A stretch of 4,952 nucleotides of DNA from a virus (taxonomy: Duplodnaviria; Heunggongvirae; Uroviricota; Caudoviricetes), in IMG/VR virus record IMGVR_UViG_2713896771_000019; one strand, 5' to 3'. Under the pieces are notes generated by a model. That model was not told the origin of the DNA. It ran no database searches and was given only the letters and a program-made list of their open reading frames with translations. The translations under genes were made by a program, and so were the position numbers. Each line of letters opens with the position of its first letter. Positions within the stretch are counted from its first letter, which is position 1. Below are positions 2,398 through 4,952 of this stretch, in pieces.

Positions 2398-2577
2398 ATG
2401 GAAAGAGACCATATCAATAACAAATCACAGAAATTACAGGCTCGCGCCCCGCATGAAGTTGTTGAGGCAATGGAGCAAGTCAAAGAAACGGGCGAGAGTA
2501 CTGCGCAGTTTATCGTTACAGCCATGCGTGGCGAGATCAAACGCCGCCAGCGGCGCAAGGCCAAAGAGCAGGAATAG
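2398..2577 (+). CDS. Small basic protein (59 aa), candidate DNA-binding regulator of the switch
   Basis: Found by manual translation (below the size cut-off of the ORF track): MERDHINNKSQKLQARAPHEVVEAMEQVKETGESTAQFIVTAMRGEIKRRQRRKAKEQE. AAGGAA SD lies 7 nt upstream of the ATG. A 7-bp stem-loop (2582-2600) follows the TAG stop, and a strong intrinsic terminator lies ~100 bp further downstream. It is transcribed divergently from the operon across the operator palindromes. Confidence 0.5.
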   Translation: MERDHINNKSQKLQARAPHEVVEAMEQVKETGESTAQFIVTAMRGEIKRRQRRKAKEQE

Positions 2578-2866: not shown

Positions 2867-2973
2867 TTTCACCAGGCCGAACGAAGCCCCGCCCCTGTAC
2901 GGGCGCATATCCAGTATTCATGGTTAGATCTCTGTATTAGTGGATGGGTGGCGGCTGTGTGCCGCCAGCCTGA

Positions 2974-3162
2974 TTAGTGAACTGCCTCGCAGCTGTCTTT
3001 CCATGCCAGAACTTCGGATAAAGACCAGCCAACGGAACGACCGCCGAGCTTACGCCGTGATGGGAATTGTCCGGCTTTTTCCAGGCGGTACCGACATGAG
3101 CGGCTCAGGCCTGTAAGTTGCTGACATTCTTTTTCACGTATAAAGCGATCTGTGCTTAACAC
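2974..3162 (-). CDS. alpA: AlpA/Vis-family phage transcriptional regulator (62 aa, MerR-like HTH)
   Basis: Track ORF; the start codon is GTG at 3162-3160, preceded by a strong SD AAGGGGG (4 nt spacer). The motif LTGLSRSCRYRLEKAGQFPSRRKLGGRSVGWSLSEVLAW matches the AlpA-family signature (HTH ... FP ... LG.RSVGW...E...W). It lies downstream of, and in the same orientation as, the integrase, as in P4-like elements. Confidence 0.8.
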   Translation of the reverse strand: MLSTDRFIREKECQQLTGLSRSCRYRLEKAGQFPSRRKLGGRSVGWSLSEVLAWKDSCEAVH

Positions 3163-3192
3163 AATTCCCCCTTTGTTGTTTCTTAAAGAGTC

Positions 3193-3240
3193 ATTGGGTG
3201 GGTTATTGGGTTGGGTTGTGTCGGATTGTGTCAGGGTGTT
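3193..3240. repeat. G/T-rich degenerate repeats (TTGGGT x3, TTGTGTC x2) in 10-bp register, upstream of the alpA start
   Basis: TTGGGT at 3194, 3206 and 3211; (G/A)TTGTGTC at 3215-3222 and 3225-3232. The region is 30-80 bp upstream of the alpA GTG on the minus strand, so it falls in the alpA promoter region. Confidence 0.45.
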
Positions 3241-3325
3241 TATGGAATGGCAAACAGTGATGTGGTGTTCGTCGCTGAAATAGGCGCAATTAGAAAAAAA
3301 CTATTTTGATTCATTTGGATACAAA

Positions 3326-3355
3326 GGCGTAAAATTCTGCATTTACGCCTTTTTT
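3326..3355. terminator. Bidirectional rho-independent terminator between int and alpA
   Basis: GGCGTAAA (3326-3333), 8-nt loop, TTTACGCC (3342-3349), then TTTTTT (3350-3355) on the plus strand. On the minus strand the same hairpin is followed by TTTGTAT. Confidence 0.65.
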
Positions 3356-3408
3356 ACATATTTTTAAGATTGATTCGCCAATGTACAAAAAAACAGTAAA
3401 CCACCAGA

Positions 3409-3456
3409 AAATCAGACTTATAGGGAGTTAATCAGAAATAATCATAGATAATCAGA
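3409..3456. repeat. Helically phased (W)AATCAGA repeats
   Basis: ATCAGA at 3411-3416, 3431-3436 and 3451-3456, exactly 20 bp apart, with ATCATA at 3441-3446 in the same 10-bp register. Confidence 0.55.
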
Positions 3457-3457
3457 T

Positions 3458-3517
3458 TTGTTCCAGATTGTTCGCCGTTGTTCGTCGTTGTGTCTCGTTG
3501 TTTCACGTTGTGTCCGT
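3458..3517. repeat. Six tandem 10-bp repeats TTGT(T/G)(T/C)CNCG directly downstream of the int stop
   Basis: Units: ttgttccaga, ttgttcgccg, ttgttcgtcg, ttgtgtctcg, ttgtttcacg, ttgtgtccgt, contiguous with perfect 10-bp register. The array ends ~20 bp from the int TAA (3539-3541). Confidence 0.7.
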
Positions 3518-3538
3518 TCTGAAAAATCGCGAAAAAAA

Positions 3539-4789
3539 TTATATTTCTCTGGCTATTGGCAGTGTGGTTACGTTTTCGTGAGCACCTGCCAGTATCTCTA
3601 ATCGCTCTGTCCACATATCCAGCGCATTACGTTTCGCATCGATATAACGGGAGTGGTTATAGACTCGTTGCATCCCTGGCATCTGGTGAGCGGTGAGTTG
3701 TTCGACAATATGTGGATCCACGCCTAAATCGTTCAGCATCGTGGTAAACGTGCGCCGTATATCGTGTAGTGACCAGTGCGGATGGTTTAATTTTTTGTGC
3801 GTGAATCTGCCGTATTGCGACACGCTGGCTTCCTGTTTCAGTTCCCCGAGTAATAGCCCTGTGTGCCTGTTCTGCTCCACCAGCTGTGTGACGAACGGCA
3901 AAATGCTTTCCGGTATTGGCCTGAATATGGCGACCTTCGTTTTGCTGTGCTCTTTCGGTACTGTCCAGAGCATTTCCTTAAAATCCCACTCCCTGATCTC
4001 CGACAGCCTCAGTTCTCCGGTCCGGCAGCCGAACACAATCAGGAGGCGGATTAGTGCGCTGTAGTAGGGCGGGAATATTTTTTTATCCAGCGCCTGTAAT
4101 AATTCGCTCAGTTCTTTGTTGCTCAGCACGCGTTCGCTTATGCCCGGCTTTTTGCCAACGTCCACCACGTTGAGATCATCCAGAACGTTACTGACTGCGT
4201 AGCGACGTTTACGGCAGAACTTAAGCGCCTGTTTACACGCCTGCATCATGTGGCCAGATGTTACGGGTGATTTTTTGCGTATCCGGTCAAAACAGGCCAG
4301 CCAGTGACGTAACTCGCATTTATCCAGTGGCATATTGCCAATATGCTGTATGACGTGATTATTAAGGCGGCTTTTCAGGCATACGTAATCGACACGGTTT
4401 TCCTTTACGTGCATTTCCAGCCAGTAGCTGATCGCATCGCCCACCGTTACCGGCTTTAGTGCTTCCTGTATGGAGTAATTAAGCTCATGGCGTGGATTTT
4501 TTCCTTCTGCCAGCCATGCGCGACACTGTGCTGCTTTTTCCCTGGCTGCTTTCAGGCTCAGATCAGGATAATTTCCCAGTTTCAGGCGTTCCGGTGATAC
4601 CTGGCGTCCTGTTCCTGCCCTGTAGGTGAAATACCAGGTTAACAGGCCGCTGGTGGAGTGTCTGATACTCAGATTTCCACCGTCATTAAGAAAGGTGGTT
4701 TTTTGGGCTGGTGTGCCGTTGATTTTTCTTAGCTGCGTGTCGCTCAGTTTGTTAAGTGCCCTGCTCATAATTTTGAATCCGGTCATCAC
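3539..4789 (-). CDS. int: P4-family tyrosine site-specific integrase (416 aa)
   Basis: Track ORF. The N-terminal arm-binding-like region (LSDTQLRK...FLNDGGNLSIR...YFTYRAGTGRQVSPERLKLGNYPDLSLKAAREKA) resembles P4-type integrases. The C-terminal catalytic region carries the tyrosine-recombinase signatures GCRTGELRLSE, HDIRRTF and a Tyr in RVYNHSRY. The first codon at 4789 is GTG; alternative ATG starts lie at 4786 and 4768, none with a clear SD. Confidence 0.9.
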   Translation of the reverse strand: MMTGFKIMSRALNKLSDTQLRKINGTPAQKTTFLNDGGNLSIRHSTSGLLTWYFTYRAGTGRQVSPERLKLGNYPDLSLKAAREKAAQCRAWLAEGKNPRHELNYSIQEALKPVTVGDAISYWLEMHVKENRVDYVCLKSRLNNHVIQHIGNMPLDKCELRHWLACFDRIRKKSPVTSGHMMQACKQALKFCRKRRYAVSNVLDDLNVVDVGKKPGISERVLSNKELSELLQALDKKIFPPYYSALIRLLIVFGCRTGELRLSEIREWDFKEMLWTVPKEHSKTKVAIFRPIPESILPFVTQLVEQNRHTGLLLGELKQEASVSQYGRFTHKKLNHPHWSLHDIRRTFTTMLNDLGVDPHIVEQLTAHQMPGMQRVYNHSRYIDAKRNALDMWTERLEILAGAHENVTTLPIAREI

Positions 4790-4790
4790 A

Positions 4791-4814
4791 ATTAACTACA
4801 CCATTAACTACACC
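4791..4814. repeat. Perfect 12-bp tandem duplication ATTAACTACACC x2, immediately upstream of the int start
   Basis: Copies at 4791-4802 and 4803-4814 are identical and abut the int start codon region (4786-4789). Confidence 0.7.
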
Positions 4815-4830
4815 GATCATTGCACAAGGG

Positions 4831-4860
4831 GGTACAACGTGGAACAAGCTGGAACAAGAA
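4831..4860. repeat. Three tandem 10-bp repeats GG(T/A)ACAA(C/G)NT upstream of int, the inverse of the array downstream of int
   Basis: Units ggtacaacgt, ggaacaagct, ggaacaagaa. Read on the minus strand they give CTTGTTCCAG / CTTGTTCCAC / GTTGTACC, sharing the 9-mer TTGTTCCAG (plus 3458-3466; minus 4857-4849) and CACGTTGT (plus 3504-3511; minus 4841-4834) with the 3458-3517 array. Confidence 0.65.
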
Positions 4861-4952
4861 AAATTGCAATAGACTTAAAAATCAAAAACATAATGAACAA
4901 CGTGGCACATTATGAAACAGCAAAAAACACTAATTTATAAAAATCCGCTATT

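Follow-up and report, generated by a model that had tools for sequence, protein, structure and literature searches.

The window, a stretch of DNA of 4,952 nucleotides, is the int end of an Escherichia coli phage-inducible chromosomal island (PICI), and its integrase gene is flanked by phased decamer repeats that are real and conserved among related islands. These decamers probably constitute operator arrays for the AlpA protein encoded by the island itself. The arm-type sites of the integrase are likely provided not by the decamers but by a separate doubled 12-mer located upstream of int, as judged from sequence comparison. The features are collected in Table 1.

Table 1. Coordinates of the genes, repeats and predicted signals in the window
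Feature	Position	Strand	Remark
alpA, 62-aa winged-helix protein of the AlpA/Vis family, proposed decamer reader	2974-3162	-	PF05930, E = 3e-18
alpA-promoter decamers, 2-3 units TTGTGTCGGA TTGTGTCAGG GTGTTTATGG	3216-3245	+	co-oriented with internal array
Predicted alpA promoter, TTGCCA-17-CACAAT with TG extension	3225-3253	-	consensus scan
Hairpin AAAGGCGTAAA/TTTACGCCTTT	3323-3358		A run before, T run after on + strand
Three TAATCA units, 10-bp spacing, abutting the internal array	3429-3456	+	variable among relatives
Internal array, six contiguous decamers TTGT K Y C nnn	3458-3517	+	kept in relatives
int, 409-aa tyrosine recombinase with N-terminal arm-binding domain	3539-4768	-	Pfam
Doubled 12-mer ATTAACTACACC x2, probable Int arm-type sites	4791-4814	+	23-46 nt upstream of int ATG
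att-arm cluster B, four units pointing toward int	4818-4857	-	TTGTTCCAGC TTGTTCCACG TTGTACCCCC TTGTGCAATG
att-arm cluster A, TGT-phased, adjoining the core	4891-4930	-	GTGTTTTTTG CTGTTTCATA ATGTGCCACG TTGTTCATTA
att core identity block ATCCGCTATT	4943-4952		same 10-mer at both L001 island ends

The breadth of relatives was taken from complete E. coli genomes and IMG/VR. In the closest complete relative, L001, the island splits yifB/comM and carries the core block at each end, and since the window ends on this same 10-mer, positions 4790-4942 form the int-side att arm. The upstream decamer array is thus part of the attL arm, whereas in the initial annotation the arrays were thought to flank the int gene rather than a crossover core. 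The stretch 4790-4952 has the properties of a P4-type attP arm: the core block is found at both island ends, tandem 12-bp repeats flank it and int reads away from it. The target of the island is a protein gene, yifB, and a tRNA scan of the window found no tRNA genes; an Rfam search over the whole window gave two sub-threshold matches only, indicating the absence of known RNA families. A distant blastn search of a phage collection with positions 2900-4952 as the query returned no matches, and of two scans of genome contigs with Int the first gave nothing and the second, performed with an alignment, gave one Shigella locus.

The internal array is located 22-81 nt 3' of the int stop codon, between int and alpA, and consists on the plus strand of the units TTGTTCCAGA TTGTTCGCCG TTGTTCGTCG TTGTGTCTCG TTGTTTCACG TTGTGTCCGT in a strict 10-bp register, just as it had been described initially; it is inverted relative to the decamers of the att arm. 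The proposed inverted array 5' of int is also present, although instead of three units at 4831-4860 it comprises the four units of cluster B, three of them well matched and the fourth weak. With the weak unit this cluster begins 4 nt from the doubled 12-mer, and without it about 14 nt. Compared with cluster B, cluster A is weaker and its units are more degenerate, and it has counterparts in relatives; this cluster, the decamers at the alpA promoter and the doubled 12-mer had all been missed. The words TTGTTCCAG and CACGTTGT, noted earlier as common to both arrays in inverted orientation, were indeed found in both; they belong to an inverted repeat of 35 nt with 80% complementarity. Phased TTGT runs of six and four units were observed; none of 2000 dinucleotide-preserving shuffles reached four, the longest shuffled run being three units (3 of the 2000). 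The earlier suggestion of phased cooperative protein-binding arrays is probably right. The two-unit pattern TTGTKYCNNNTTGTKYC (one mismatch at most) has seven matches against 0.07 expected, and within the window these fall only at 3216-3232, 3458-3514 and 4831-4857. The repeats are therefore direct, one helical turn apart, at least three in a row and degenerate in sequence, as in operators of recombination directionality factors (RDFs) and related regulators of the Xis, Cox, Apl, Vis, TorI and RdfS type.

Among the relatives, the internal array is kept as 4-6 phased units, with five or six in 19 of the 20 unique versions. The 32 distinct units of this array show almost no variation in TTGT and no constraint at positions 8-10, and in one relative a unit has been duplicated. 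Cluster B is kept in the arms of Int alleles targeting at least five different chromosomal sites, and the units at 3216-3245 are conserved across variants of the alpA module. Complete relatives have the decamer motif at as many as five places, none of them outside the island: in the two att arms, on the 3' side of int, over the predicted alpA promoter and, if the relative forms capsids, at the capsid-operon promoter, where three units lie 13 nt upstream of the -35 element of a predicted TTTACA-16-TATGTT promoter before the capsid gene. When whole islands were scanned together with about 70 kb of the chromosome around them, the two-unit pattern turned up only in the island itself, some islands having one further intra-island two-unit match beyond the five places. 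The far arm has the same layout as the int-side arm, with decamers beside a doubled 12-mer; since this decamer copy is situated in a highly conserved stretch, its conservation says little. The location of decamers at promoters remote from att suggests a regulator rather than a recombinase.

As for the co-variation with int, alpA or the helicase, which the initial annotation had proposed to check, the arrays do not track the replicase, and the 3' array tracks both the Int clade of at least 83% identity and AlpA allele 1, which are confounded: allele-2 islands are without the array, and 87 loci yielded no recombinant separating the Int clade from the AlpA allele. Where the AlpA allele is 57% identical and the Int N-domain core is the same, the decamers shift to a TTGTTCG flavour at three unlinked sites, a covariation that is weak because allele-1 arrays also have TTGTTCG units.

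The integrase contains the Pfam domains Arm-DNA-bind_3 and Phage_integrase, with Phage_int_M weak and below the cutoff. It is 83-98% identical to aligned relatives that use yifB (98%), roxA, allE and tqsA sites, 76% identical to the Int of the cspD site and 23% to P4 Int. Pairs of ACTACACC are co-oriented at 4795-4814 of the window and at 2580-2599 of L001, in its far arm. In both arms the 12-mer varies together with the Int N-domain: Int variants with RHSTSGLL have ATTAACTACACC in their arms, and in three strains those with GGNLSVKYLTSGKL have AGTGACTACACC in each of the two arms, which are about 14 kb apart. The decamers and AlpA are the same in the RHSTSGLL and KYLTSGKL variants, whereas the 12-mers of both arms differ. 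A second far arm of the KYLTSGKL variant was sought at another att site, and the two extra islands found were both again at tqsA. By position, the 12-mer is the counterpart of the pairs annotated in P4 as 'attP arm sequence repeat' and of the doubled motif of HE-PICIs. The co-variation with the Int N-domain and the P4-like position suggest that the 12-mers are likely the Int arm sites.

AlpA is 47% identical to P4 Vis and identical in 62 of 62 residues to AlpA of EcCICFT073, and it has a match to PDB 8c3t ('AlpA family'); the element thus encodes its own small winged-helix protein of an RDF family. The layout TTGCCA-17-NACAAT of the predicted alpA promoter is kept in relatives, and islands with the second AlpA allele have TTGCGT-17-CACGAT. 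The decamers at 3216-3245 cover the -10 element and the initial transcribed region of this promoter. Between it and the internal array, the hairpin looks like a bidirectional terminator, with a stem that is apparently kept via paired changes in relatives (alignment, by eye); it was not called by the terminator scan. The TAATCA units are found at the junction of the int and alpA modules (~3422), the 3' array being on the int side of that homology break. No convincing plus-strand promoter in the style of the capsid promoter was seen after the six-unit array; there is only a weak TTCTGA-17-TATATT, noticed by eye, which overlaps the int stop. A gene encoding a YlcI/YnfO-like small protein is accompanied by three TGGA(A/T)TCCA palindromes at 2297-2377.

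Winged-helix proteins of the excisionase/regulator kind, for which the arrangement of the decamers is typical (P4 Vis, 186 Apl, TorI, RdfS), bind head-to-tail, one monomer per helical turn, on degenerate direct repeats, and about three or more adjacent units are needed for good binding. Degenerate direct repeats at about one-turn spacing have been described in exactly these terms for RDFs (PMC7498355), and for TorI attL contains five cooperative sites (PMC3509656). AlpA of EcCICFT073 activates a PalpA-lacZ fragment (PMC6092414), the primers of which enclose the entire spacer between int and alpA and with it the six-unit array, at 2186-2245 of the CFT073 locus; the AlpA-activated fragment thus contains the arrays, while the alpA and capsid-operon promoters themselves are predictions. 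AlpA is also required for PICI excision (PMC6092414, PMC11773190). AlpA would occupy up to five sets of sites, namely the int-side arm with its two clusters, the far arm with one, the capsid promoter, the alpA promoter and the internal array. In each att arm it would sit beside a doubled 12-mer bound by the Int arm domain and shape the excisive complex, and the three units just upstream of the capsid-operon -35 element would be suitably positioned for activation by AlpA. The six-unit array is the longest and should be the highest-affinity site, which would fill before the 3-4-unit sites used for excision and late expression; it may serve as a nucleation site or as an autoregulatory operator for the alpA promoter.

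Several observations run counter to this reading. AlpA of EcCICFT073 left Pint-lacZ unchanged (PMC6092414), despite the decamers abutting the int promoter region; the primers of that reporter had no match inside the CFT073 stretch examined. The internal array and the arrays facing promoters have opposite orientations, and units over the -10/+1 region of the predicted alpA promoter would predict repression, yet AlpA is reported to be an autoactivator. P4 Vis has been reported to repress Pint. The presence of decamers in both arms is atypical of RDFs, lambda Xis and TorI each using a single arm. It is conceivable, if rather doubtful, that the six-unit array is a dedicated high-affinity nucleation site which, with the shorter 3-4-unit arrays of the att arms and the capsid promoter, forms an affinity ladder leading from alpA autoregulation to excision and then to capsid expression or, alternatively, a docking site for a helper-phage Xis/Cox-like protein that first switches alpA on; if such docking were true, it would reveal the cis target, long sought, on which helper phages act to induce Gram-negative PICIs.

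The initial annotation had listed Int, AlpA/Vis and replication proteins as possible readers of the decamers, and AlpA, the favoured option, is the probable binder. The decamers might instead be arm-type sites for the N-terminal domain of Int, the 3' array autoregulating int through looping to the att arm or titrating Int. The Arm-DNA-bind_3 domain of Int, the occurrence of decamers in both att arms and the location of the 3' array within the int module, found only with the Int clade of at least 83% identity, would agree with this, as would the autoregulation of P4 Int via its N-terminus, reported as cited in PMC7286903. It is nevertheless improbable, since a 12-residue change in the Int N-domain is accompanied by altered 12-mers in both arms and untouched decamers, so that co-variation with this domain, expected of arm-type sites, is a property of the doubled 12-mer, which also holds the positions of the P4 arm repeats and of the HE-PICI doubled motif (PMC10111431). 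In addition, the decamers are not confined to the att arms: they occur 3' of int, where no 12-mer accompanies the array at 3458-3517, and at the alpA and capsid-operon promoters, where Int has no known role. Another unlikely candidate, a little less so, is a reader other than AlpA or Int: a helper-phage factor (Xis/Cox-like inducer), a host nucleoid protein or another regulator of the island. Helper phages switch on alpA transcription through some factor (PMC6092414, PMC11773190), cross-talk between an AlpA-like protein and phage Xis has been demonstrated (PMC11773190), the largest array is upstream of alpA, and the island also encodes the YlcI/YnfO-like protein. However, the flanking chromosome lacks the motif, which is restricted to the island; this speaks against a general host protein, and the ylcI/ynfO-like gene has distinct palindromes of its own. 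Moreover, the AlpA-responsive reporter worked in the laboratory cloning strain DH5-alpha with pBAD-supplied AlpA alone (PMC6092414), so a helper phage should not have been needed.

It is extremely improbable that the arrays are replication iterons related to the type I repeats of P4 alpha (TGTTCACC), and this explanation was rejected. Iterons are visible in P4 ori and crr, and TTGTTTCACG, the fifth unit, does resemble TGTTCACC superficially, as had been pointed out, but the identification as an iteron does not hold: identical arrays accompany three unrelated replicase types (RepA helicase, DUF927 and primase-family), and repeats that are unaffected by replicase swapping neither co-vary with an initiator nor lie close to one, being placed at att, int and promoters, with 2 kb or more between them and the replicase gene. 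The origins of PICIs have been reported downstream of pri-rep (PMC6092414), and a P4 alpha homologue is absent according to Pfam.

AlpA has been called the master regulator of Gram-negative PICIs and a master activator needed for excision and transfer (PMC6092414; bioRxiv 10.1101/2022.09.08.507074), while the literature searched gave neither a definition of its binding site, nor binding data for any PICI AlpA, nor an account of the way in which a single small protein sets off autoactivation, excision and late gene expression. The TTGT-phased motif at up to five island-confined positions provides a concrete candidate operator map that is cheap to test, as the proteins and reporters already exist owing to the identity with EcCICFT073 AlpA. 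The probable Int arm sites, indicated by covariation of the 12-mer, are now separated from the accessory-protein sites, and this helps to explain how near-identical arms serve Int alleles with at least five different target genes. The design is familiar from P4, P2/186, KplE1 and ICEs, and what is new is the mapping of the proposed sites in this phage satellite; since the principle is well known, the result fills a gap and overturns nothing.

P4 Vis reportedly bends DNA and has two binding boxes in the interval from int to the core. As in this island, int of P4 reads away from the core, a tandem 12-bp pair precedes the int ATG, a co-oriented 12-bp repeat pair is found beyond the core and Vis is annotated as an excisionase and transcriptional regulator (NC_001609); the region from the int-side pair to the core contains four TCC-phased 10-bp units. 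Unlike the window, P4 has 12-mers of GGGGGCAT and TCC instead of TTGT phasing beside its distant Int, no phased array was seen by eye in the ~65-nt spacer 3' of its int, and vis is far from int, whereas alpA directly follows int here. For Apl of phage 186, direct repeats with 10-11 bp spacing, 3-7 per cluster, are found at att and promoters and are bound with low specificity and high cooperativity, affinity rising with unit number (PMC7498355); the same paper cites P2 Cox as belonging to the same class of dual-purpose RDF/regulator. Apl differs in protein family and repeat sequence, and its array is located between face-to-face lytic and lysogenic promoters, while the extra array of the window is between co-directional genes.

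TorI of KplE1 (CPS-53), treated as an AlpA-family winged-helix excisionase (PMC11773190), has its five cooperative sites in attL, the int-side arm, where they overlap the int promoter and are found with Int arm sites (PMC3509656, PMC2951348); these sites are described only in attL, and neither an internal array 3' of intS nor late-promoter sites are reported. RdfS of ICEMlSymR7A is likewise a winged-helix RDF, forms filaments, binds attP upstream of intS as well as its own promoter and couples excision to transcription (PMC11963761), although no consensus motif could be defined for it, in contrast to the clear TTGT-phased motif of the window. EcCICFT073, with its identical AlpA, has the same decamer clusters and 12-mers, and the module and the capsid-promoter array are common to islands of the EcCIEDL933 type (cf-PICI); the Int allele of the window is directed at yifB/comM instead of roxA. 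HE-PICI attP sites carry a doubled 12-bp motif, tgTGTATTGCa x2, once on each side of the centre and in the same orientation, for which binding by either the Int arm domain or AlpA has been proposed; its sequence is different, and phased decamers and an internal array are not reported there (PMC10111431). The AlpA antiterminator of Pseudomonas aeruginosa, with DNA contacts at residues 128-142 and a single GGGACG element (PMC9371919), was rejected as a model, as it is a much larger Q-like protein that shares only the name. For CP4-57, a strict k-mer phasing scan was empty; TCC phasing and a doubled TAGGCCCA motif were seen by eye only.

All genes of the window except one lie on the - strand. The nearest complete E. 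coli relative, L001, is 93% identical and represents a capsid-forming phage-inducible chromosomal island (PICI) of about 15 kb within yifB/comM, with the gene order int-alpA-...-RepA-SSB-ProQ-capsid-protease-portal-...-TerS-TerL. Each end of this island carries the 10-mer ATCCGCTATT, and the window terminates exactly on the same 10-mer (4943-4952), indicating that 4790-4942 is the predicted int-side att arm.

Predicted genes of the window
Gene	Position	Strand	Remarks
int	4768..3539	-	409 aa; Arm-DNA-bind_3 + Phage_integrase
alpA	3162..2974	-	PF05930
several small ORFs		-	including a DUF4222 gene
AAA_25/RepA-type helicase gene		-	truncated in the window
YlcI/YnfO-like gene	2398-2577	+	59 aa; sole + strand gene

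The int alleles that are mutually 76-98% identical (window 3539-4768; A1; relative loci L002-L005 and L095) use at least five chromosomal loci, located within yifB and tqsA and beside roxA, allE and cspD. Their att arms are near-identical despite these different integration loci, so small differences that lie outside the Int arm-binding system seem to be what alters target choice.

The initial annotation placed six + strand TTGT-phased decamers at 3458-3517, and these were present on re-reading of the sequence; the inverted decamers 5' of int were also found, but as four units (4857-4818) instead of the three claimed. The longest phased TTGT run in 2000 dinucleotide shuffles was 3 units, against runs of 6 and 4 in the window, and the two-unit pattern TTGTKYCNNNTTGTKYC has 7 matches in the window versus 0.07 expected, limited to three sites (3216-3232, 3458-3514 and 4831-4857). 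A second, more degenerate TGT-phased cluster adjoins the core (4891-4930).

At the int/alpA module junction, three TAATCA units with 10-bp spacing (3429-3456) abut the array; they occur in a few relatives only, and unrelated sequence takes their place elsewhere. At 3323-3358, the interval from the array to the alpA promoter contains a hairpin with an A run on one side and a T run on the other, similar to a bidirectional terminator. Judged by eye, its stem in relatives shows paired substitutions (GGCGT/ACGCC versus GGCAT/ATGCC) that apparently preserve it.

In about 730 E. coli genomes, the homology of the alpA module ends at window position 3422, just before the array, so the array 3' of int is co-inherited with int. 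Int alleles 83-98% identical to that of the window, which target yifB, roxA, allE and tqsA and are accompanied by three different replicase types, all have 4-6 phased units 3' of int; the possibility, raised initially, that the arrays are replication iterons is regarded as highly improbable. Of the 20 unique array versions, ten have 6 units, nine have 5 and one has 4. TTGT hardly varies among the 32 distinct units, K-Y-C is preferred at positions 5-7, and positions 8-10 are free. What is conserved is a periodic motif under selection, not simply an inherited sequence. The decamer arrays are real and conserved, and they look functional.

In one relative, the IMG/VR locus L056, the unit GAGCAACAAT is exactly duplicated within the first 140 nt past the int stop, giving 6 units versus 5 in close relatives; the copy number of the array changes by whole units. 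A sister clade (Int 75-77% identity, 57%-identical AlpA allele) is without the array 3' of int and keeps the decamers and 12-bp repeats in its att arms. In the first ~100 nt past the int stop, the loci of this clade (L063-L086) show a terminator hairpin and then three 10-bp-phased AATATC units or, in some members, a palindrome; these units are a different phased repeat from the decamers.

The int-side arm also holds the doubled 12-mer ATTAACTACACC x2 at 4791-4814, 23-46 nt 5' of the int ATG, and the far arm of L001 contains a co-oriented copy of the same ~55-bp module, in which the 12-mer pair is followed by GAAACAACGT GGAACAAATA GACACAAG. Int alleles with RHSTSGLL have ATTAACTACACC as the 12-mer and those with GGNLSVKYLTSGKL have AGTGACTACACC in both arms, ~14 kb apart (three strains), the decamers and AlpA being constant between these variants. 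Similar repeats are known in P4, where the GenBank "attP arm sequence repeat" consists of tandem 12-bp pairs directly 5' of the int ATG and across the core, and in the attPs of HE-PICIs, where a doubled 12-bp motif, like the doubled 12-mer here, is found at -81 and +132 (PMC10111431). The covariation with Int, the unchanged decamers and both parallels make the 12-mers the putative sites of the arm-binding domain of Int, which would leave the decamers to something else; the alternative that the decamers, which also lie in the arms, are Int arm sites is unlikely. By eye, the stretch upstream of intA in CP4-57 of E. coli K-12 (L096 2640-2745) has the layout of P4 and the window island: a doubled TAGGCCCA 12-bp motif, with an inverted copy close to the ATG, and TCC-phased units in the direction of ssrA.

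Complete islands and their flanking chromosome were scanned with the two-unit pattern, and zero matches were obtained in the flanking chromosome. An extra site was found at the capsid promoter: 13 nt separate the end of the decamers TTGTTCGTGG TTGTTCCAGG TTGTTCGGTG (L001 10077-10106, - strand) from a predicted TTTACA-16-TATGTT promoter, ~200 nt 5' of the major capsid gene. These decamers are kept in 6/6 capsid-forming islands examined (L001, L088, L089, L090, L093 and L094) and absent from the EcCICFT073 island, which has a different capsid module; one more intra-island match occurs in two islands. The alpA-proximal units overlap a conserved predicted promoter, TTGCCA-17-(TG)CACAAT, and in islands with the sister-clade AlpA (allele 2) the counterpart predicted promoter TTGCGT-17-CACGAT is followed by three phased CGAAC units. 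Being located at both att arms and at predicted promoters of regulatory and late operons, the motif resembles a set of operators for a regulator of the island. The alpA leader also contains a 12-bp tandem repeat, ATTGGGTTGGGTT x2 (3193-3217), partly conserved in relatives, that follows the promoter-proximal decamers and precedes the ribosome-binding site.

The decamers are probably operator arrays of AlpA. Winged-helix recombination directionality factors (RDFs) occupy direct repeats spaced by one helical turn in head-to-tail fashion; about three adjacent units are required, sequence discrimination is weak, and the proteins are often promoter regulators too (186 Apl, PMC7498355; RdfS, PMC11963761). 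TorI binds cooperatively at five attL sites that overlap PintS (PMC3509656, PMC2951348). The decamer arrays match the site pattern of such factors. The window AlpA is 47% identical to Vis, the P4 excisionase/regulator, and four TCC-phased units occupy the part of the P4 arm corresponding to that of the decamers here. In allele-2 islands the decamers change to TTGTTCG at three sites, one in the int arm, one in the far arm and one near alpA, with no change in the 12-mers or in the core of the Int N-domain; the shift of the motif with the AlpA allele is suggestive only, because TTGTTCG units occur also in arrays of the window-type allele. The window AlpA is that of EcCICFT073 (62/62 identical), whose island has the same arrays, and the mapped primers of the AlpA-activated PalpA-lacZ construct (PMC6092414) delimit a fragment covering the whole int-alpA spacer, including the six-unit array. 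Excision and transfer of PICIs both depend on AlpA (PMC6092414, PMC11773190; bioRxiv 10.1101/2022.09.08.507074).

Several points speak against AlpA. In EcCICFT073, AlpA left Pint-lacZ unchanged; RDFs do not usually have sites in both arms, as the decamers do; and units over -10/+1 of the predicted promoter imply repression, yet AlpA is reported as an autoactivator. For the presence of the internal array, Int clade and AlpA allele are confounded. There is a small though appreciable chance that the decamers are read by another phage, host or island protein. If AlpA is the reader, the excisive complex would be shaped by AlpA filaments on the arm clusters, beside 12-mers occupied by Int, and the three units 5' of the capsid promoter might serve AlpA activation of late genes. 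The six-unit array would be the tightest AlpA site because it is the longest, by the Apl precedent; it may fill first and, jointly with the promoter-proximal units, control alpA. Such an arrangement follows an established design, in which operator arrays of an RDF/regulator are combined with a P4-type att arm, in an element for which the literature searched gives no map of these sites; the result, only moderately surprising, is useful to PICI researchers.

The ~400 bp that separate the end of alpA from the YlcI/YnfO-like gene (2578-2973) are non-coding and contain several GC-rich hairpins, e.g. 2681-2701, and Rfam gave just a sub-threshold MicX-like match there (2665-2834). Directly upstream of the YlcI/YnfO-like gene, three 13-bp palindromes (ACTGGATTCCAGT, AGTGGAATCCACT and ACTGGATTCCAGT at 2297-2309, 2320-2332 and 2365-2377) look like candidate operators for another small regulator and are distinct from the decamers.
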